DNA from: a virus
Strand: one strand, 5' to 3'
UHGV virus genome: UHGV-0174115
DNA length: 23,432 nucleotides
Shown here in pieces: positions 1 to 23,432 of the stretch. The stretch's first letter is position 1; each line of letters starts with the position of its first letter. Below the pieces are notes generated by a model, which was given only the letters and a program-made list of their open reading frames with translations, made no database searches and was not told the origin of the DNA. A program made the position numbers and the translations under genes.

Positions 1-55
1 GCCTACACCAGCGGCAGCACCTGTAGCAGCGCCTACACCAGCGGCAGCACCTGTA
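1..55 (+). repeat. In-frame tandem repeat (25-nt core gcctacaccagcggcagcacctgta twice, 30-nt period) encoding PTPAAAPVAA x2
   Basis: Direct repeat visible at 1-25 and 31-55; runs to the window edge so copy number may be higher upstream. Confidence 0.7.
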
Positions 56-3293: not shown

Positions 3294-3647
3294 ATGATTA
3301 AACTCTGTTACATTGCCGGGCCTTATCGCGCTGATTGTGCGCTTAAAACATCCCGTAACGTGTCGCGCGCTGAACAGGCAGGTAAACGACTTGCTTTACA
3401 ACGTCCGGGGTGGTTCCCGGTTATCCCTCACAAGAACACCGAATTGTGGGACTTTGACGGCGGTTTACGCAATATACAACCTGAATACTACCTGTCAGGC
3501 ACATTAGAAGTTATGCGCCGCTGTGACGCTGTTCTGGTGCTTCCTGATTATCGTCGTTCATCTGGTACGCTAGCAGAAATTGCAGAAGCTGAACGTCTGG
3601 GTATTCCTGTGTATTACAGCGTGGAGAGCGTACCGGAACATGGCTAA
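3294..3647 (+). CDS. DUF4406-like protein (nucleoside 2-deoxyribosyltransferase-like fold), 117 aa
   Basis: MIKLCYIAGPY... N-terminus and CDAVLVLPDYRRSSGTLAEIAEAERLGIPV C-terminal motif as recalled for the DUF4406/NDT-like family; ATG 3294 with AGGA 8 nt upstream (track start 3264 is TTG). Confidence 0.55.
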   Translation: MIKLCYIAGPYRADCALKTSRNVSRAEQAGKRLALQRPGWFPVIPHKNTELWDFDGGLRNIQPEYYLSGTLEVMRRCDAVLVLPDYRRSSGTLAEIAEAERLGIPVYYSVESVPEHG

Positions 3648-4161
3648 AGACAACTGGGAAACACCGTGGGATTTTATTGATAATGTTTCTCGTGAATTCC
3701 CGCTTGTTCTTGATGTGTGTACCGATGGTTCTAACGCTAAATGTTCGTTGTTTATCACTGATAGTCTGAATAAAGACTGGCATTCGATTGTTCAAAGTAA
3801 TGGTGGTGGGTTCGTCTGGTGTAACCCACCGTACAGCGATCCGTCCCCCTGGGTTAATAAAATAATAACCACTGTTTATCAGGGAACTGGTTCGTTATTA
3901 CTTGTGAACGCTATGACGTCTGCAGACTGGTTTCATAAAGCACTGACACATTGTTCAGAACTATGGGTATTTAAAGGTCGTATAGCGTTTGTAGATCCTG
4001 ACACCGGGTTACCTGCAGGCGGAAATGACCGTTCACAGGTGATGTTTGTTTTCGACCCACATCATATCGGTGAATGTAAAACGAGATCTGTAAAAGTTTC
4101 CGACTATCAGAAAATAAAACGACAAGCGTACAGGAGTTATTGTTATGTCCACAATCGTTGA
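3640..4161 (+). CDS. dam: Phage-type DNA N6-adenine methyltransferase (Dam family)
   Basis: N-terminal WETPWDF and catalytic NPPY motif (GFVWCNPPYS) typical of phage Dam N6-adenine MTases; ATG 3640 overlaps upstream stop (ATGGCTAA). Confidence 0.85.
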   Translation: MAKDNWETPWDFIDNVSREFPLVLDVCTDGSNAKCSLFITDSLNKDWHSIVQSNGGGFVWCNPPYSDPSPWVNKIITTVYQGTGSLLLVNAMTSADWFHKALTHCSELWVFKGRIAFVDPDTGLPAGGNDRSQVMFVFDPHHIGECKTRSVKVSDYQKIKRQAYRSYCYVHNR

Positions 4162-4378
4162 ATTCAACCCTATGGATCCTGCTAAACGCCCAACAGGACG
4201 CTTTGCAAGATTGCCACAAACACGCGAACAGTTTTTTCCATTGTTGAACATGCGAGGGATTAAAACAGATCCACACGGGTTGATAGGAACATCCTTGTTC
4301 ATGTACCGAACTGAATATCCGGTTCCCGCATCGTGGATTGAGGTGTCGGTTGAAGATTTACTGAAGACTGTCTACTAA
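4145..4378 (+). CDS. Hypothetical small protein (77 aa)
   Basis: ATG 4145 with AGGAG 8 nt upstream; 3' end overlaps the convergent o-spanin 3' end. Confidence 0.4.
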   Translation: MSTIVEFNPMDPAKRPTGRFARLPQTREQFFPLLNMRGIKTDPHGLIGTSLFMYRTEYPVPASWIEVSVEDLLKTVY

Positions 4379-4606
4379 TGCGTTGTGAATAGTTGCACAT
4401 TTGAAATAAATATCTAACCACTGGTCATTAACATCTGTTGAATCATTTCCTGTCAGACCGTTCAGCCGTGGAAGGTTTTCGGTCTGACACTTCTGAACTA
4501 ATGCGGCCTGATAAACGGGCTTCTGCTTCGGTAACTCGTTCGTTGTACAAGCGTTGATATTCAGAAGTAAGACACTCGTTACGAAAAACAGTATTAGTCT
4601 TTTCAT
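4358..4606 (-). CDS. Outer-membrane spanin (o-spanin, Rz1-like lipoprotein)
   Basis: Signal peptide plus lipobox-like LLLNINAC; 82 aa; out of frame and overlapping the 3' part of the i-spanin gene (overlapped spanin architecture). Confidence 0.55.
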   Translation of the reverse strand: MKRLILFFVTSVLLLNINACTTNELPKQKPVYQAALVQKCQTENLPRLNGLTGNDSTDVNDQWLDIYFKCATIHNALVDSLQ

Positions 4607-4841
4607 GTCGTATTTCCACGATTTTAGTATTCTGCGACCAGTCAGCTAAACCACGAAGTACATCATCCGCTAGTTCCTGTTGTGCTTTTAACCGTTGTTG
4701 TTCCAGTTCAATAGCATCTAGTTGTTCCTGACGTTCTTCGTTTAACCGTGCTTTATATCCAGCGTGGTAACACGTATACGCACCTACGCTTAACACAAGA
4801 ACGGTCGCAACAACGGTGATTAGCACACTACGGGTTGTCAT
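4443..4841 (-). CDS. Inner-membrane spanin (i-spanin, Rz-like)
   Basis: N-terminal TMD (VLITVVATVLVLSVGAY) followed by charged coiled-coil-like region; directly downstream of the endolysin region; contains the overlapped o-spanin ORF. Confidence 0.6.
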   Translation of the reverse strand: MTTRSVLITVVATVLVLSVGAYTCYHAGYKARLNEERQEQLDAIELEQQRLKAQQELADDVLRGLADWSQNTKIVEIRHEKTNTVFRNECLTSEYQRLYNERVTEAEARLSGRISSEVSDRKPSTAERSDRK

Positions 4842-5058
4842 TTGGTGTACCTCGTTGTTTATCTACAGCGATTTTTTTAGCACCAACATACTGACCTATA
4901 CAGAAACCGAAATAGGTTAACAACACTGTATCATCAAGTGTGCGGTCCACGGCCTGATAAATCAGAATGCCTGTTACCACGAGGAAGCCTAAAGCCGCTT
5001 GTGCGCGGCTTAAAGAGATCCCCCCGGTTGTGTTACGTAATATGCTGAATTTATCCAT
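4828..5058 (-). CDS. Small two-TMD membrane protein (holin/antiholin-like)
   Basis: Two hydrophobic segments (AALGFLVVTGILIY, VLLTYFGFCIGQYVG); start uncertain (ATG 5058 chosen; an ATG at 5088 would overlap the endolysin 3' end). Confidence 0.45.
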   Translation of the reverse strand: MDKFSILRNTTGGISLSRAQAALGFLVVTGILIYQAVDRTLDDTVLLTYFGFCIGQYVGAKKIAVDKQRGTPNDNP

Positions 5059-5068
5059 GATTGTTATC

Positions 5069-5458
5069 TCACGCGGGATATTTCGCATGTGGTAACTGGA
5101 AGTGTGGACCATCTTTCAGTGTTTTCCAGTCACCACCCCATTCAACAGGGATATTCAGTTCTTTTGCAGCCTGTTTAAATGCAGTGGCAATCTGTTCGTA
5201 ATATTTCCATTCCCATGATCCGGCAGATGTAGGATAAGCAAATACATCCACGGCGTGACCCGAAATATGGCGACTGTTCATCGTCTGACTTTTACCTGCA
5301 GCAACTAGTTGTCGTTGTCGTTCAACAGTTCGTAAACCTTCTGTGATACCGAAATCAACGGGTGATAACTGAAGTGCCCGACGCACGATTTTCACAAGAT
5401 CTGGGTTAACCCCTTTCAGATTGTTTTCGCTTCTCTGACTGAATTTAAAGTTACTCAT
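5069..5458 (-). CDS. Endolysin, peptidase M15 family (L-alanyl-D-glutamate peptidase type)
   Basis: Zn-ligand pattern SRHISGHAVDV ... DGPHFQL and overall similarity to T5-type M15 endolysins; ATGA overlap with upstream gene. Confidence 0.85.
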   Translation of the reverse strand: MSNFKFSQRSENNLKGVNPDLVKIVRRALQLSPVDFGITEGLRTVERQRQLVAAGKSQTMNSRHISGHAVDVFAYPTSAGSWEWKYYEQIATAFKQAAKELNIPVEWGGDWKTLKDGPHFQLPHAKYPA

Positions 5459-5778
5459 TGCTTACTCCCGGTTTTACGTTGTTCCGCTTTCAAACCTTCA
5501 ATAACAACTTTCAGGTCATTTGTTGACTGTGTTAGCTCTTTAACACTAGTGAGGATTTCAGCGTTCTGTGTGGCCTGATATTCGATTTTGATGTCGTGAA
5601 CATCCACTCGGGATTCCACTCGCTTTGCCAGATTAAGCGCCTCATGCGCATAGGTTTTTGCATCAGTAATATCTTTTTCATTAGAATTGATTTGGTTTTG
5701 AGTTACTCCGTAACCTACCAACCCCGTGGCAACAAATGCTATTATAGGCCAATACCTTAACACTGGGTTATCAGACAT
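5455..5778 (-). CDS. Single-TMD protein upstream of endolysin (putative holin)
   Basis: N-terminal TMD (YWPIIAFVATGLVGYGV) then charged helical C-terminus; first gene of the lysis cluster; AGGAG 9 nt upstream of ATG 5778. Confidence 0.4.
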   Translation of the reverse strand: MSDNPVLRYWPIIAFVATGLVGYGVTQNQINSNEKDITDAKTYAHEALNLAKRVESRVDVHDIKIEYQATQNAEILTSVKELTQSTNDLKVVIEGLKAEQRKTGSKQ

Positions 5779-5804
5779 TGTTTTACACTCCTGGAGAATT
5801 AAAG

Positions 5805-8411
5805 ATGGCTAACTGTAACGATTATATCAGCGCTGATGATTTGAAAACAGGCAAACAAGCGATTTTACATATTGAGCATGTAGCGAAAAGTCGTGATGCT
5901 GCTGGCAACCCTGCACTGGAAGTAACAGATACTATTCGTGGTGAATCAGTTACTAACAAGACGCTTGATGGTTTACAGCGAATGTACACGGGGGCCATTA
6001 GTCAAGTTGGTTATGTCACACTAAAAAGTTTTCAATCAGGCGTACCTTTGCCGAATAACGAACTGACACTACCGAATCAAGTATTACAAGATGAAACAGA
6101 CGGTGAATACTACAGATGGGATGGTGTTTTCCCTAAGGTTGTCCCATCTGGCTCAACACCAGTTAGCACGGGGGGCATTGGTGTAGGTGCATGGTTAAGC
6201 GTTGGAGATTCCACTCTTCGTAGTCAGGTTGAAATTACCGCTGAGTCAATTGGTGTTGTAAGTGGTGTTGTTTCGCAATCTGTAGCAAAATCCAACGCTG
6301 ATATTATCAATGCTAAAGCGGCAGAGATAAGTGCTGTGGGTGGTGGGAAAATAATTTTCACCAGAGATTTATATCAGGTGCATATGAATGAGTCTGATTT
6401 TAGTTCTTCACCCGAAACAATTCGAGTAGCAGCGCTTTGTATTCCTTATGATAATGTAATTCTCGAAGGTCAAGGATGGAATTCAACTACTATACAAGCA
6501 TGGGCAACCAACTCCGCATATGGTGTTTTGCAGTGGTCAAAAGCACCATTGCAAAATGGTGTGACGAAAGTTCATGGTGTGGGTCTACACAACATTTGTA
6601 TCGATGGTAATTACCAAGGGGATTTCACACCGGGGTCTTATGTAAGACAGACAGAAGGGATTGTAGGTGCAGGCATTGAAGGTTTGAGCATCAACAACCT
6701 CAAGGTTAAAAACTGTTCCCACTATGGGATGGGTTTGCAGAACGGCGGCTACAAAGGGTGCATTATTGATGGTTACTGGTCAGAAAATACCGGTGCTGAT
6801 GGTATCGATATTAAAGATAATGGCTCAGTCAGCCGTGCATTCCAGTTAAATAACATCTTTGTTTTTAATTTTGGACAACTTGATGAACCAAAGAACCCAT
6901 GGGCTGGTGTTGATGTCATGTCAATTGCGCCAAAAGTATCTAATGTCTACATTTCTGACTTTGGAGATGTTGGTTGCCCAGGGGCGGGTGTTCGCATAAA
7001 GCAGGGACCAATAGGTGATCTGGCTGGAAGGGGATCAAGTGCGTGGGCAAATGTTTCTGACATAACGGTTGTACAAAACAGGTTTGGTGCAGCTTATACG
7101 ACATTGATTGGGCTGCACATAAAAGCTCCTTTTGTAAACTTCAGCAACATCGTTGCAATAGGATACGAAGGCGGGAGAATGAAAAATGGCGTCTGGATAG
7201 AAGAGAGGCACAGCCGGGGTTCTAATATTCAGATAGCCAACGCGGAAGATGGTTTATCTGTTACCGCCTCAACCAGTGGCACATCTGATGGACGACAGTA
7301 TGGTGATGGTGACGATACGGTAATTAACGGCCTTGTATGCAGAGATGTTAACCGGGCTGCAATCATCAACAGGAAATACGTGAAGTTAAGTGGGATAACT
7401 TTTAAAGATTGCCCTGTAGGGTTTGTATCTGGTGGTAGTGGCTCTGGTAAAATAACGATAAAAGGGGTGCATTTAGATAATGTTCCAAACCCATTTGGTC
7501 TAATGGGCGGAACTCACCACATCATCACTGATGTTACCGGCCCAAGCTCTGCAGATTGGCAGGCTGGGACTGGTGTTATAAAAGGTGCAAGTGATTTTGT
7601 TGCCACCACAATCATGAGCAAAAATAGCATACGTCTTTATTCTGGCTCCACAGATGATGCGCTTGGTACGGAAGTCGCGCGCTTTGCCTCGACTGTAAGT
7701 GATGTATTTTCTACGCTGCGTATCACTGGCAACCTCCAGCCGGTCGCCGCTAACACATATTCTGTAGGTACAAACTCATTGCCATGGGCAGGCGGTTATA
7801 CCCAGACGGCGTTTACTGTCACCTCCGATGAAAGGCAAAAATCTCGCCCAGTGATGCTGGCTCGTGGTTCTCTCGAACCCGCCCAAACGACAGATTCACG
7901 GTTAATGGAAGCCCCGTACGCAGATGATATTCTGGATGCCTGGGCGGAAGTAGATTTCGTTCAGTTCCAGTTCATTGACCGAATAGAGGTAAAGGGAGAC
8001 GATGGTGCGCGCTGGCACTTTGGAATTATTGCTCAGCGTGCCAAGGAGGCATTTGAACGCCACGGACTTGACCCTCACAAGTTTGCTTTCTTCTGTTACG
8101 ATCCAGAAGAAACCATTCCTGCTGTGTATGAATCCGTCCCGGCGAAGTATGAAGTTGTGCCAGCCGTTTATGATGCCGATGGGAATCTGGTTTCGCCAGA
8201 GTTGTGGGAAATGACTGAACCAGCGCATGAAAAGTTGGTGGCTGAGTCATATGTTGTTGGTGAGAAGTATGGTATCCGTTATGAAGAGGCGTTAGTCCTT
8301 GAAGCTGCATTACAACGAAGGAAATATACAAGACTCTTGACGTTAACCGAAAAACTAGCGTCAAGAGTAGAAATACTAGCGTCAAGAGTAGAAATACTAG
8401 AAAAGAAATAA
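5805..8411 (+). CDS. Tailspike/tail fibre with beta-helix (pectate-lyase-like) region and C-terminal intramolecular chaperone (peptidase S74-like) domain
   Basis: Gly/Asn-rich central region (e.g. NCSHYGMGLQNGGYKGCIIDGYWSENTGADGIDIKDNG) and C-terminal ...DSRLMEAPYADDILDAWAEVDFVQFQFIDRI...ARWHFGIIAQ... resembling endosialidase-type chaperone domains. ATG 5805 with GGAG 8 nt upstream (track 5778 is TTG). Confidence 0.8.
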   Translation: MANCNDYISADDLKTGKQAILHIEHVAKSRDAAGNPALEVTDTIRGESVTNKTLDGLQRMYTGAISQVGYVTLKSFQSGVPLPNNELTLPNQVLQDETDGEYYRWDGVFPKVVPSGSTPVSTGGIGVGAWLSVGDSTLRSQVEITAESIGVVSGVVSQSVAKSNADIINAKAAEISAVGGGKIIFTRDLYQVHMNESDFSSSPETIRVAALCIPYDNVILEGQGWNSTTIQAWATNSAYGVLQWSKAPLQNGVTKVHGVGLHNICIDGNYQGDFTPGSYVRQTEGIVGAGIEGLSINNLKVKNCSHYGMGLQNGGYKGCIIDGYWSENTGADGIDIKDNGSVSRAFQLNNIFVFNFGQLDEPKNPWAGVDVMSIAPKVSNVYISDFGDVGCPGAGVRIKQGPIGDLAGRGSSAWANVSDITVVQNRFGAAYTTLIGLHIKAPFVNFSNIVAIGYEGGRMKNGVWIEERHSRGSNIQIANAEDGLSVTASTSGTSDGRQYGDGDDTVINGLVCRDVNRAAIINRKYVKLSGITFKDCPVGFVSGGSGSGKITIKGVHLDNVPNPFGLMGGTHHIITDVTGPSSADWQAGTGVIKGASDFVATTIMSKNSIRLYSGSTDDALGTEVARFASTVSDVFSTLRITGNLQPVAANTYSVGTNSLPWAGGYTQTAFTVTSDERQKSRPVMLARGSLEPAQTTDSRLMEAPYADDILDAWAEVDFVQFQFIDRIEVKGDDGARWHFGIIAQRAKEAFERHGLDPHKFAFFCYDPEETIPAVYESVPAKYEVVPAVYDADGNLVSPELWEMTEPAHEKLVAESYVVGEKYGIRYEEALVLEAALQRRKYTRLLTLTEKLASRVEILASRVEILEKK
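8355..8396 (+). repeat. Perfect 21-nt tandem duplication (ctagcgtcaagagtagaaata x2) encoding LASRVEI x2 at the tailspike C-terminus
   Basis: Direct read of sequence; in-frame heptad duplication followed by LEKK and stop. Confidence 0.75.
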
Positions 8412-10940
8412 TTAATCATCCTGATAATAACGTGCATCATAATTGATGCACGTTAAACCCACTTGATAGTTATTATCCCTCCCTGATGGTTCCATAGTCT
8501 GAACCAACATCGCTAGCTTACTCCGTTGGTCATCTGCTCGGATCACAAATGCGGTTCGGTCACGTAACCAACCCGTATAAATTTCTTCAGACGGTTGATG
8601 ACTCAGGATTACTGTGAATTCATCGTTTCCAGCAATAATTGGAATATTTTCAATTGTACCCAGTCGCCCAGTAAGCGTAATTGAATAAACGTTACCTGGT
8701 GCAATTACCACCGGATCACTTAAAGTAAGTGTTAAGCCATTTACATCTTCAACGAAACCTTCCATTTGTTTCATTCGAGTGTTGTCGATCATGTCGACTC
8801 GCATACCGGGTGTAGCCTGTAACCCGATACTGTTGGTAATTGTTTCGTGGGTTATGCGTTGATAGCGAAGTTTGTTCATTTCACGATCAGCACGGATTGT
8901 AGCCAGATACTTAGACTGACACGCAACCAGGTCAATTTTGTTCAGGTTTATTTCTTCACCACGGGTGACATACAGATAAGACTTAACATCGTGGTCGAAG
9001 TATTTAACCTGAACGCCTGTATAATCTTTTGGTGGGGCGAATGTGCGGGTACGTTTATCACTGTCCGGGATCTTATATGCGTGACCAAACTGCATAGCAG
9101 ACTGATCCTGTGGTAATTCGGGCCAGAAGTATAGCACACTACCGACCTGATACGGGGTCACATTAACGGTACTGCAAATCGTCTGTAACCCTTCTTCGTA
9201 GGTGGTGCTATTGTTATCAAACGTGTAACCAGCCTGAATAGCACGAATATCACCAAAGTAATCTAACAATTGTTGTTGAACTGCGTACAGTGCTGTCTGG
9301 TCTATTGTACTGATGGTACGACGACCAAATACAGGATCGAGGTGCATGGACATAACAATGTCTGCGAAGTTCGAACTTGCGATACCATTATAAACACGGG
9401 TTGCTGTCATGTTTAATTTACGTTCTTTTTGTTTTAAAGCAGCATTGGTCGCTTTTGTTACAGCATGAATAAGCGTTACATCACCATAAGAGCGTGGTGA
9501 AATGTTACTGATTGCGTAGAGATCACGCCATTTAACATTGTCAACAACTGTTCCTTCGAAGTCTTTATCCGTATTCGATAAACGTCTTACCGAAACGTTT
9601 ACAGGTCCATTAAACGGGTTTTTCAGTATGACAGTCTTACCCACTGATTCCGTAAATCGTCCGGTAACCTGAAACGGATGATTTACACTCGCCTGAATAC
9701 CTGCTGGGTCTGAAAGAATCAACATGAAATCAATAGTAAATGGGTATACATCACCGTCCGTTTTATACACTCCGTTCTGCGCATACATGTTAATCATTAC
9801 TTTATCAGCATTTTCTAATAGATATGGTCCGACAATATACGGCGTGGTACTGTCAAGAGACGGTGAAAACTTGTATAAAACACTTCCACTTTCTTCGGTA
9901 GTTTCAAGTTCCCAGTAACCATCATTTCGCAAATAAGCCTGTGTATATGCAGCCTGGCCATTTTCAGACAGAATATCCCAACCATCACGACCATTAGTAT
10001 CAATGATTAACGTATTCTCACCTGCATAAATAACATCATATTCACCGGACAGGTCATTACGTACATACGTGTTTAACGGTAACGTATTAGGTGTAAAACT
10101 GTAAAATTGTGATAAACGAATTTTACCACCGATTGGTGCACGTTCTGACCAGTCAATCGTAGTGTTATCATCGCTGGAAATCGTAGTATCAATTTCACCA
10201 GTGCTGTAAATTTTAAAACTCGCTTTGCTGATATCAGCATAGTTTGGTGGCTTGACTTCAGATCCGTCTGCTTCGTTCGATGACTTAGCAACCATGATCG
10301 GAAAAGTGTTAATATCAATTGCACCACCGATATTCATGTACGGCGAACCATAACCGGGCGCATTACCTTTTTTATAAAAGTCTAATTTTTCACCACTGAT
10401 ATTTATAGCAGGTGTAATACCGTCACGAACATCTTCGACTTCGTATTCACCAACACCCAGACACAGAAACTGAACTTCATATTCTGTTCGGTCAATGAAG
10501 ATTCGGTAGTCCATTAACAGATCGGGATATGCCAGTACACGACCACGGATATCAGAAATACGTTCACCCGGTCGTGAAGCGTTGGTACGCCCCTGAAGCG
10601 CGTTGTTAGATGATGCTGAACGTGAGTTCTTAAGATTAGCCGACGCACTGGTATTCGGCATGAACAATTTTAAAATGGGGTTTAAAATTGTGCTAATAAC
10701 TTTCGTTATTGCACTAACCACCCCACCTTTTGGTAATTCATAAATGTGATAAACAGCATCAGGATCAGTTAATACGCTGGGGTCAGTGACCCATTTCTGG
10801 GTAATGTTTTCGTCGTTTTTATAAATCAGTAACCCACGCGGACGAACTGTACCCACGGGCCAGCGTTTCAGCATCCATTCACCAAAGTCAACGTTATCCG
10901 CATGTTCAACAGGATTAGTGTGATAAATGACTTTAGACAC
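8412..10940 (-). CDS. Large tail-tip / central fibre (host-specificity, J-like by position) protein, 842 aa
   Basis: Last and largest gene of the tail-tip module downstream of tape measure and small tip proteins; GTG start 10940 with GGAG 9 nt upstream. No specific motif recognised. Confidence 0.5.
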   Translation of the reverse strand: MSKVIYHTNPVEHADNVDFGEWMLKRWPVGTVRPRGLLIYKNDENITQKWVTDPSVLTDPDAVYHIYELPKGGVVSAITKVISTILNPILKLFMPNTSASANLKNSRSASSNNALQGRTNASRPGERISDIRGRVLAYPDLLMDYRIFIDRTEYEVQFLCLGVGEYEVEDVRDGITPAINISGEKLDFYKKGNAPGYGSPYMNIGGAIDINTFPIMVAKSSNEADGSEVKPPNYADISKASFKIYSTGEIDTTISSDDNTTIDWSERAPIGGKIRLSQFYSFTPNTLPLNTYVRNDLSGEYDVIYAGENTLIIDTNGRDGWDILSENGQAAYTQAYLRNDGYWELETTEESGSVLYKFSPSLDSTTPYIVGPYLLENADKVMINMYAQNGVYKTDGDVYPFTIDFMLILSDPAGIQASVNHPFQVTGRFTESVGKTVILKNPFNGPVNVSVRRLSNTDKDFEGTVVDNVKWRDLYAISNISPRSYGDVTLIHAVTKATNAALKQKERKLNMTATRVYNGIASSNFADIVMSMHLDPVFGRRTISTIDQTALYAVQQQLLDYFGDIRAIQAGYTFDNNSTTYEEGLQTICSTVNVTPYQVGSVLYFWPELPQDQSAMQFGHAYKIPDSDKRTRTFAPPKDYTGVQVKYFDHDVKSYLYVTRGEEINLNKIDLVACQSKYLATIRADREMNKLRYQRITHETITNSIGLQATPGMRVDMIDNTRMKQMEGFVEDVNGLTLTLSDPVVIAPGNVYSITLTGRLGTIENIPIIAGNDEFTVILSHQPSEEIYTGWLRDRTAFVIRADDQRSKLAMLVQTMEPSGRDNNYQVGLTCINYDARYYQDD
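8429..8454. terminator. 11-bp perfect-stem hairpin (aacgtgcatca-taat-tgatgcacgtt) at the junction of convergent tailspike and tail-tip genes
   Basis: Perfect inverted repeat read directly; lies within the last codons of the minus-strand gene, 18 nt past the plus-strand tailspike stop. No clean U-tract, so terminator role is tentative. Confidence 0.35.
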
Positions 10941-23239: not shown

Positions 23240-23432
23240 GGGGATTGTCCTCGTATTGTTTCAACATGACTAAATTCTAACATTTCAGATGAATAATTGC
23301 ACTGGTGATACACGCTGTTTACAACGTTACCGAATATCTCAGAAAGATTCTTGATCGGTTCAACAGCAGTCGTTACTGGTTCAACAGCAGTCGTTACTGG
23401 TTCAACAGCAGTCGTTACTGGTTCAACAGCAG
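23236..23432 (-). CDS. Hypothetical head-region protein, 3' end only (5' end outside window), with C-terminal AVEPVTT heptapeptide repeats
   Basis: Minus-strand frame open from window edge to TGA at 23236-23238: ...AVEPVTTAVEPVTTAVEPVTTAVEPIKNLSEIFGNVVNSVYHQCNYSSEMLEFSHVETIRGQSP*. Position suggests portal or a minor head protein but this is not verifiable here. Confidence 0.5.
   Translation of the reverse strand, partial: AVEPVTTAVEPVTTAVEPVTTAVEPIKNLSEIFGNVVNSVYHQCNYSSEMLEFSHVETIRGQSP
23357..23432 (-). repeat. 21-nt perfect tandem repeat (ggttcaacagcagtcgttact, 3.6 copies, cut by window edge)
   Basis: Direct read; in frame on the minus strand, encoding AVEPVTT repeats. Confidence 0.8.

Follow-up and report, generated by a model that had tools for sequence, protein, structure and literature searches.

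Only one virion gene is on the plus strand; the lysis cassette on one side of it and the tail-tip gene on the other are both on the minus strand. This raises the question of what the gene encodes, whether its orientation is peculiar to this genome and what a perfect repeat at its very end amounts to. The DNA analysed (the window) is the whole stretch of 23,432 nucleotides of virus genome UHGV-0174115 (features in Table 1). Very probably the gene provides a 9NA/Sasha-type siphophage with its only receptor-binding tailspike, a three-part mosaic with swappable content and a self-cleaving chaperone that ends in a slippage-born, likely neutral heptad. The first part, a group-specific anchor with its Tail_spike_N domain (aa 1 to ~142), would fix the spike to the tail tip; the second, a beta-helix receptor-binding or depolymerase domain (aa ~143-640), would have been horizontally acquired; the third (aa 674-868) is an intramolecular chaperone of the S74 family.

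Table 1. Features of the tailspike locus, in window coordinates
Feature	Position	Strand	Basis or remark
Lysis cassette (holin, endolysin, spanins)	4358-5778	-	
Holin gene, divergent neighbour	5455-5778	-	phrog_24402, E 1.6e-55
Tailspike gene, 868 codons + stop	5805-8411	+	ORF, translation, PHROG tail spike families (best E 1.2e-53)
Genus-conserved 5' end (codons 1-57), start of virion-attachment region	5805-5974	+	Nucleotide homology
Tail_spike_N (PF18668), aa 66-135	6000-6209	+	Pfam profile
Right-handed parallel beta-helix, aa ~150-630	6252-7694	+	Presumed glycan-binding or depolymerase domain
Candidate autocleavage motif T673-S674-D-E-R-Q-K679 (Ser-Lys dyad, Thr-Ser scissile bond)	7821-7841	+	Alignment
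Insertion of ~20 aa (aa ~686-705) with second degenerate motif T695-T-D-S-R-L-M701	7860-7919	+	Homolog alignment
Peptidase_S74 / intramolecular chaperone core, aa 707-755	7923-8069	+	Pfam, PDB matches
C-terminal alpha-helix, aa 826-867	8280-8405	+	AF2; 10-residue block pLDDT means 72-89
21-nt tandem duplication	8349-8400	+	TRF: period 21, 2.5 copies, 96% matches, score 97
Tail-tip gene, convergent neighbour	8412-10940	-	phrog_469, E 1.4e-207
Hairpin, perfect 12-bp stem + 4-nt loop	8428-8455	.	Candidate two-way terminator

The mechanically called reading frame (5778-8411) opens with TTG; the ATG at 5805 is preceded by GGAG 8 nt upstream and gives the 868-aa product, of which an identical copy (P0001) exists in a public collection. 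Three internal frames (7902-8228 and 8026-8385 on the minus strand, 8002-8214 on the plus strand) were rejected as genes, having no convincing family match.

The window belongs to a Nonanavirus/Sashavirus-type siphophage and is about 95% identical at the nucleotide level to E. coli phage AVIO78A. Its tailspike locus displays the features of these genera, namely holin and tail-tip flanks, an opposite strand and a conserved N-terminal anchor. The sequence-only reading rightly described the tailspike as the sole plus-strand virion gene of the window, all others being on the minus strand, and as lying between lysis cassette and tail tip (26 nt separate the holin and tailspike ATGs). It also called the gene inverted, and as a genome-specific feature this did not hold. 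The tailspike lies on the strand opposite to its neighbours in AVIO78A, 9NA and four metagenomic relatives as well, and orientation and synteny were uniform in AVIO78A, 9NA, L003, L004 and L010, precisely the observation which that reading had named as counter-evidence. A recent inversion of the gene is thus ruled out. The reversed strand of the gene in 9NA, and the fact that the receptor-binding part is often exchanged, were already described by Casjens et al. (PMC4153490).

The proposal of an exchangeable host-range cassette was borne out for the content of the locus. Eight relatives matched the tailspike gene only over query nt 1-170/171 (88-92% identity); nucleotide homology broke off at 5974 with AVIO78A and at 5971 with 9NA, and resumed with both exactly at 8412, the first base of the tail-tip gene. 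At the protein level the common anchor extended to about aa 142 (aa 1-143 of Sergei P0050, 83%), with junctions at aa ~58-68 or ~136-142. The anchor is a member of Tail_spike_N (E 7.6e-18, 64.8 bits against a cut-off of 25), and aa 53-215 matched PDB sequences of CBA120 TSP1/3/4 and others. The counterparts in Salmonella phage 9NA (tailspike gp55) and in Sasha, Sergei and AVIO78A ('tail fiber' genes, 688 aa in AVIO78A) resemble the window's gene in locus and in orientation between holin and tail tip, and their anchors share 74-84% amino acid identity with it over aa 1-142. Yet the receptor-binding parts are unrelated: that of 9NA is a P22-type endorhamnosidase and that of Sergei a different beta-helix. 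Likewise, the S74 chaperone domain of the window's tailspike was absent from the 9NA-like proteins P0067 and P0069 and from Sergei P0050, as judged from the precomputed Pfam domains of these three proteins. Chaperone-bearing spikes are tolerated at this locus: its occupant in L010 is a K1 endosialidase.

The same beta-helix and chaperone module was found, at 50-88% identity, fused to P2-, T7-, P22- and SU10-type anchors. A P2-like E. coli prophage carries it at 85% identity (L005; tail fibre P0006, GCA_013012625.1), the other carriers being a T7-like phage, a P22-like prophage and an SU10-like phage. These homologs are alike from aa ~136-142 to the end, whereas their anchors differ (Phage_tail_fib, Phage_T7_tail, Head_binding) and their C-terminal tails, of 13-28 aa, are without the window's duplication. 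Given the sharp breaks of nucleotide homology and the presence of one module on four other phage chassis, the content of the cassette is regarded as exchangeable: the slot between lysis cassette and tail tip is conserved, and the part that begins near codon 57 (nucleotide level) or 140 (protein level) and runs to the stop would be swapped by recombination. One receptor-binding and chaperone module on five virion chassis (9NA-like sipho-, P2-like myo- and T7-, P22- and SU10-like podophages) makes a textbook example. When it sits on the 9NA-like chassis, recombination has joined it near codon 57 and precisely at the stop codon, which indicates for phage engineering where a 9NA/Sasha-type tailspike may be cut and re-joined. 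To judge from its sequence, the common module points to an identical or similar surface glycan, probably on E. coli or a close relative.

A C-terminal chaperone domain had been proposed for the tailspike, and a Peptidase_S74 profile indeed matched it (PF13884, E 8.6e-10, 39.2 bits against a cut-off of 22), together with solved chaperones of this MEROPS/Pfam family: those of K1F endosialidase (endoNF, 3GW6, E 5e-17 to 7e-18), GA-1 gp12 (3GUD, 1e-14) and T5 pb1 (4UW8, 1e-5). The window's domain shares with them its C-terminal position, reaching the stop codon, and a Thr-Ser...Lys motif. The best solved relative is the 843-aa 'Tail spike protein' 9vvr (E 1.8e-55), which also matched the S74 core and is alignable over aa 8-143 (N-terminal) and over aa 642-769 and 818-844 (stalk and chaperone); its central receptor-binding domain is not alignable with the window's, and it has a short C-terminal tail. 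The predicted terminal helix falls where the three chaperones have their central coiled coil, and the corresponding helix forms a trimeric coiled coil in T5 pb1 and MyRF (PMC4690869, PMC8326128). Reading of the sequence gave the a/d pattern L844-T848-L851-V855-L858-V862-L865. By homology, the chaperone would put three chains in register through this three-helix coiled coil and its beta 'tentacles'.

It is in this helix that the perfect 21-nt duplication (LASRVEI x2) announced by the sequence-only reading was found, as in-frame copies at 8355-8375 (L851-I857) and 8376-8396 (L858-I864). Chance does not account for it, since the period-21 run comprises 26 consecutive matches, whereas 100 shuffled versions of the window reached at most 13 (mean 10). 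The repeat does sit in a terminal coiled-coil-like tail; it does not, however, come after the chaperone domain as had been stated, but belongs to that domain's own terminal coiled coil. A 10-nt microhomology, GAAA(A/T)ACTAG, brackets the 21-nt unit (GAAAAACTAG at 8349-8358, GAAATACTAG at 8370-8379 and GAAATACTAG at 8391-8400), which makes the suggested origin by replication slippage plausible. Slipped-strand mispairing would have taken place between two near-identical 10-nt stretches that may themselves have been created by the heptad periodicity of the coiled coil; in the lineage as known, the extra heptad is fixed. Two alleles have GAAATA in the middle copy and the third has GAAAAA, a difference that would be expected of slippage junctions on either side of the single microhomology mismatch. 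The polymorphism that was claimed along with slippage was not observed: all three alleles of the protein cluster that were compared (868 aa each, on six contigs counting the window's) hold two copies, and no single-copy allele came up in IMG/VR, JGI metagenomes or GTDB genomes, where exact 19-25-nt patterns of the repeat unit had no match at all.

The duplication adds exactly one heptad in register, with one Val layer at 'a' and one Leu layer at 'd'. The extra heptad might be adaptive, fixed because it strengthens the trimerising coiled coil, for instance to offset the polar Thr848 at 'a' or the ~20-aa insertion behind the cleavage site. Two copies are retained even in the allele with 14 residue differences, beta-branched Val at 'a' and Leu at 'd' favour trimers, and single core mutations in the MyRF coiled coil block trimerisation and cleavage (PMC8326128). 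We nevertheless consider this unlikely, as the three alleles make up a very small sample of what are probably close relatives, and the tail beyond the conserved QRR measures anywhere between 12 and 29 aa in homologs that look functional, so that its length appears weakly constrained. At 29 aa, a length confined to its allele cluster, the window's tail is at the upper end of this range and exceeds by one to two heptads the usual lengths, which peak at 15/16 and 22, themselves one heptad apart. Most likely the duplication is without consequence, neutral or mildly stabilising for a disposable chaperone trimer. By homology it would lie in the portion cleaved off after folding; in a discarded part whose tail length is naturally variable it would be of little importance.

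Such cleavage is suggested by the candidate motif upstream of the core. It aligns with VSDARDK of 9vvr and VSDARKK of 6eu4, and TSDERxK occurs in most of the aligned homologs that bear the chaperone domain (the few variants include TSDADYK, TSNETEK and TSGAKFK). Ser674 and Lys679 reproduce the spacing of endoNF S911/K916, MyRF S587/K592 and T5 T1263-S1264/K1269 (PMC8326128, PMC4690869). Once the upstream trimer has folded, Ser674, activated by Lys679, would cut the Thr673-Ser674 bond, and the 195-aa chaperone would depart and be missing from the virion, the mature spike presumably corresponding to aa 1-673 and the released chaperone to aa 674-868. In endoNF (R897) and T5 pb1 (R1250) the active site is completed by an Arg that an adjacent chain contributes from the upstream triple beta-helix. 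No counterpart was found in the window's stalk, aa 640-673 containing neither Arg nor Lys, and Leu659 is aligned where 9vvr has Arg. This stalk Arg is not universal, as MyRF cleaves without it (PMC8326128), and its absence was therefore not taken as excluding membership of S74.

The beta-helix preceding the stalk has the fold of depolymerase tailspikes. It was compared with the A-module of AlgE4 mannuronan C-5 epimerase (2PYG, 17% identity) and with polysaccharide lyases and phage depolymerases of pectin-lyase-like fold. Its best fold matches span epimerases, lyases and hydrolases, and no substrate could be assigned because all beta-helix enzymes score high. Over aa 150-640 no characterised enzyme matched at the sequence level. 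The beta-helix offered no assignable catalytic residues, and YG(F)DPH, the AlgE-type catalytic motif, was not apparent in it. No record of the phage database matched this receptor-binding domain at the nucleotide level, and tblastn matches to the tailspike were confined to its N- and C-terminal parts. Complete E. coli genomes gave one partial match (83%) and ~56-nt matches to the chaperone-coding 3' end, from which no host serotype could be inferred.

The lack of assignable catalytic residues would be compatible with a non-enzymatic, fibre-like adhesin; likewise, the missing 'sensor' Arg and the non-canonical spacing between Ser-Lys motif and core would suit a non-cleaving relic of a chaperone, retained on the virion. 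Both readings, taken together, seem quite unlikely: the fold is that of depolymerase tailspikes, the conservation of T-S-D-E-R-x-K in most homologs, spread over five phage chassis, argues for selection on cleavage, MyRF achieves cleavage with no stalk Arg, and in the T5 study only the processed protein inhibited infection by competition (PMC4690869).

That spacing is due to the ~20-aa insertion, which, compared with solved structures, puts about 20 more residues between the intact Ser-Lys motif and the chaperone core. Neither the insertion, with its second motif, nor the lack of the 'sensor' Arg is shared by 3GW6, 3GUD and 4UW8, and 9vvr is likewise without the insertion. The second motif has neither Ser nor Lys in the window; about half of the homologs carry one (SSDERLM or TSDQRLI) and it is missing in the rest. 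In the HMMER alignment TSDARLK of 7y5s falls on this second motif, and a 20-residue gap opens relative to 9vvr. AF2 models most of aa 639-702 with a confidence below 50. An intact TSDERQK with a Lys-less (S/T)(S/T)DxRLM some 20 aa further on might define an undescribed S74 sub-type, in which a duplicated autocleavage motif lengthens the tether from cut site to chaperone core and the coiled coil changes by whole heptads through slippage. This seems very unlikely to us; if true, a relic motif or a coil length that tunes chaperone release, or a second cut site, would represent a new regulatory variant of S74, a domain type that the human transcription factor MYRF employs too.

It is extremely improbable that the duplication results from faulty assembly or sequencing, or that the assembler merged length variants coexisting in one population: although both window ends coincide with tandem repeats, so that repeats did trouble assembly, the two-copy structure recurs in independent assemblies from other samples (L003 and L004; SRR14663583, ERZ28624611), and the periodic stretch of 46 nt is shorter than a typical sequencing read.

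Downstream, the stops of tailspike (TAA, 8409-8411) and tail-tip gene (TAA, minus strand, 8412-8414) abut, and a hairpin lies just beyond them, within the last codons of the tail-tip gene. Its folding energies (-23.1 and -26.4 kcal/mol, z -6.6 and -5.9) were equalled by none of 200 shuffles, and the AVIO78A record annotates a terminator at the equivalent position. It may act as a two-way terminator insulating the convergent tailspike and tail-tip genes. A scan for sigma-70 promoters between 4000 and 9000 returned no site against 9.5 expected, and no promoter was assigned. On the minus strand, TGaTATAAT is visible by eye.

In megablast searches with the whole window, the closest matches were siphophages of the 9NA/Sasha type. 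E. coli phage vB_EcoS_AVIO78A (AVIO78A) was the nearest (87% covered, 95% identity), followed by Salmonella phages Solent, Sergei and Sasha (85% covered, 93.5% identity), and 9NA was further off (66% covered, 82% identity). The gene order of the window (see table) agreed with the annotation of these relatives. In AVIO78A and 9NA, and likewise in the three metagenomic relatives for which context was fetched (L003, L004 and L010), both neighbours of the tailspike gene are encoded on the other strand. Since all of them share this orientation, the arrangement is ancestral to the 9NA-like group and not a local inversion. The sequence-only reading had itself named uniform orientation and synteny in relatives as refuting its claim, and the 'inverted' part of that claim is refuted by them. 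Indeed, Casjens et al. (PMC4153490) had already described this slot of 9NA-like phages and its opposite orientation. The tailspike, which carries an S74 chaperone, represents a new receptor-binding allele in this conserved slot, and the duplication near its C-terminus is a young, in-register one of a single heptad; the feature was correctly spotted but is ordinary.

Gene blocks and sequence features of the window, with positions on the plus strand
Feature	Position	Strand	Remarks
DNA polymerase and small genes		+	first block in gene order
Spanins, endolysin, holin		-	second block
Tailspike gene	5805-8411	+	between holin and tail-tip blocks
Tail tip, tape measure, tail tube, capsid		-	last block
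Chaperone insertion, about 20 aa	7860-7919	+	aa ~686-705, between cleavage motif and first helix of chaperone core
Perfect 21-nt repeat copies	8355-8375, 8376-8396	+	in frame, LASRVEI twice, aa 851-864
Perfect 12-bp hairpin	8428-8455	both	within last codons of tail-tip gene
Second perfect 21-nt tandem repeat	23357-23432	-	at least 3.6 copies, cut by window end
30-nt tandem duplication, gcctacaccagcggcagcacctgta...	1-55		very start of window

The mechanical ORF (5778-8411) begins with a TTG that shares bases with the start codon of the holin gene. A GGAG precedes the ATG at 5805 by 8 nt, and translation from this ATG gives an 868-aa product, which was present unchanged in the public collection (P0001); 9NA gp55 uses the equivalent start and the AVIO78A annotation a longer one. 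Pfam matches were obtained for Tail_spike_N (aa 66-135, E 7.6e-18) and Peptidase_S74 (aa 707-755, E 8.6e-10, 39.2 bits for a cut-off of 22), and tail spike and tail fibre families were matched in PHROGs. An AF2 model from a 46-sequence alignment (mean pLDDT 72) was confident for aa ~70-130, a beta-helix at aa ~150-630 and the C-terminal helix, and poor for aa 1-69 and most of aa 639-702. The factual points made on this gene from sequence alone were all borne out by the ORF, Pfam/PHROGs, TRF and translation results.

The proposal that the tailspike content forms an exchangeable host-range cassette was well supported by sharp homology breaks, by the module on other chassis and by other spikes at the locus. 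All eight phage records with a nucleotide match covered only the first 170-171 nt of the gene. Pairwise blastn placed the left break at 5974 (AVIO78A) or 5971 (9NA), and homology to both came back exactly at 8412, the first base past the tailspike stop codon and, for the other strand, the first base of the tail-tip stop codon. At the protein level, Sergei (83%) and 9NA-like endorhamnosidases (78%) shared the N-terminal anchor up to about aa 142, and beyond it no close relative was found in the phage collection. About 38 proteins of a large protein collection carried the beta-helix and chaperone part at 50-88% identity, which began at aa ~58-68 or ~136-142. Homologous modules occurred behind a Phage_tail_fib N-terminus in a P2-like prophage of E. 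coli (L005), behind Phage_T7_tail in a T7-like phage, behind Head_binding in a P22-like prophage (L007), and in an SU10-type context in an SU10-like phage. Different spikes occupy the same locus in other 9NA-like genomes: L010 displayed a K1-type endosialidase (3501-6473) in the same oppositely oriented slot, with End_N_terminal, End_beta_propel, End_tail_spike and its own Peptidase_S74 domains. The 3' part of the cassette was somewhat G+C-richer than the flanks (0.48-0.51 versus 0.41-0.44).

Neighbouring genes were recorded in both prophage contigs. Directly downstream of the L005 tail-fibre gene, whose receptor-binding module is 85% identical to that of the window, lies a resolvase/invertase gene (9199-9780, Resolvase and HTH_7), which resembles Gin/Cin-type fibre inversion systems. 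The gene directly downstream of the P22-type tailspike in L007 (7653-8396) displayed a weak Hexapep Pfam match; its product is possibly an acetyltransferase and may represent serotype conversion acting on the same glycan.

The best PDB match of the chaperone was 9vvr; others were 3gw6 (endoNF chaperone, E 7e-18), 3gud (GA-1 gp12), 4uw8 (T5 pb1), 6eu4 and 7y5s. The stalk ends in GGYTQTAFTVT|SDERQK, a stretch that HMMER paired with VSDARDK in 9vvr and with VSDARKK in 6eu4. TSDERxK was found in most aligned homologs bearing this domain, with exceptions such as TSDADYK, TSNETEK and TSGAKFK. Characterised members combine a Thr-Ser scissile bond with Ser(i)/Lys(i+5): S911/K916 in endoNF, S587/K592 in MyRF and T1263-S1264/K1269 in T5 pb1 (PMC8326128, PMC4690869). 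As motif, spacing and scissile bond are the same here, we infer cleavage at Thr673-Ser674, which would leave a mature spike of 673 aa and release a chaperone of 195 aa. Unlike endoNF and T5, and like MyRF, the tailspike has no counterpart of the stalk 'sensor' Arg, since aa 640-673 contain no Arg or Lys and Leu659 stands at the position of the 9vvr Arg. The insertion downstream of the cleavage site, shared by roughly half of the homologs and seen in none of the solved structures matched, holds a second, degenerate motif copy (TTDSRLM here, SSDERLM or TSDQRLI in relatives) that lacks the Lys in every case; the 7y5s cleavage motif aligned to this copy (HMMER). The cleavage-site segment appears to have been duplicated in tandem long ago. 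Together, the duplicated, half-degenerate motif and the missing Arg define a chaperone sub-type without a solved structure and are the only mildly unusual points of this gene.

TRF reported a 21-nt period at 8349-8400 (2.5 copies, 96% matches), and the run at this period was 26 matches long, versus a maximum of 13 across 100 shuffles. In solved chaperone domains, trimerisation is driven by a central coiled coil of three helices, the last one of each chain (PMC4690869, PMC8326128), which residues 1371-1394 form in T5 pb1 (PMC4690869); in the four-heptad alpha-4 helix of MyRF, single core mutations stop trimerisation and cleavage (PMC8326128). In the tailspike, AF2 predicted a single helix at aa 826-867, whose heptad core was read as L844(d), T848(a), L851(d), V855(a), L858(d), V862(a) and L865(d). 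The duplication would thereby add one Val 'a' and one Leu 'd' layer with the register kept and, by homology, would sit in the part discarded after folding. Among 52 relatives, the tail past the conserved QRR measured 12-29 aa, with modes at 15/16 and 22, and 29 aa occurred only in the three alleles of the window protein's cluster. As the modes lie one heptad apart and removal of one copy restores 22 aa, the commonest length, whole-heptad change is normal tail variation, of which the window's extra heptad, still perfect in DNA, is the youngest event.

A slippage polymorphism had been proposed. Slippage is a plausible origin: the inferred precursor GAAAAACTAG-CGTCAAGAGTA-GAAATACTAG would contain a 10-nt direct repeat (one mismatch, 21-nt spacing), arising from the EKL.../EIL... 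coiled-coil periodicity and offering a substrate for slipped-strand mispairing. A polymorphism was not supported. The 90% cluster of the protein comprised three members of 868 aa, each with two copies: the window's own allele, an allele differing by one substitution (4 contigs, of at most 58 kb), and a divergent allele whose 14 substitutions include 12 in the insertion region. A single-copy allele was sought in this cluster and with exact patterns in IMG/VR, JGI metagenomes and GTDB genomes, but none turned up. At the start of the middle copy, the divergent allele reads GAAAAA and the others GAAATA, as expected if its slippage junction fell across the mismatch from theirs; a point change arising afterwards would have the same outcome. 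An assembly artefact is excluded because the duplication is present in independent assemblies.

The stop codons of the convergent genes abut (tailspike TAA 8409-8411, tail-tip TTA 8412-8414 in plus-strand reading). The nearby hairpin was far more stable than shuffles on either strand (z about -6 on both), and the AVIO78A annotation has a predicted terminator at the corresponding position; the hairpin is likely a two-way terminator and probably separates convergent transcription. At the other flank (5778-5830), only 26 nt separate the start codons of holin and tailspike, and their Shine-Dalgarno sequences occupy opposite strands of one near-palindrome, CTCCTGGAG, so that the promoter of each gene must be located within the other gene or past it. 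A simple scan of 4000-9000 detected no sigma-70-like promoters, versus 9.5 +/- 3.1 expected from shuffles. An extended -10-like TGaTATAAT, seen by eye on the minus strand (5829-5821) in the nucleotide-conserved first 57 codons, is a candidate that may serve the lysis cassette.

The second 21-nt repeat belongs to a small minus-strand ORF running off the window and encodes the heptapeptide (T)AVEPVT. Copy number does differ between relatives here: just 2.3 copies, and imperfect ones, were counted in the AVIO78A homolog, AVIO78A_046. A tandem repeat lies at each end of the window, a sign that the source contig may have broken at repeats.
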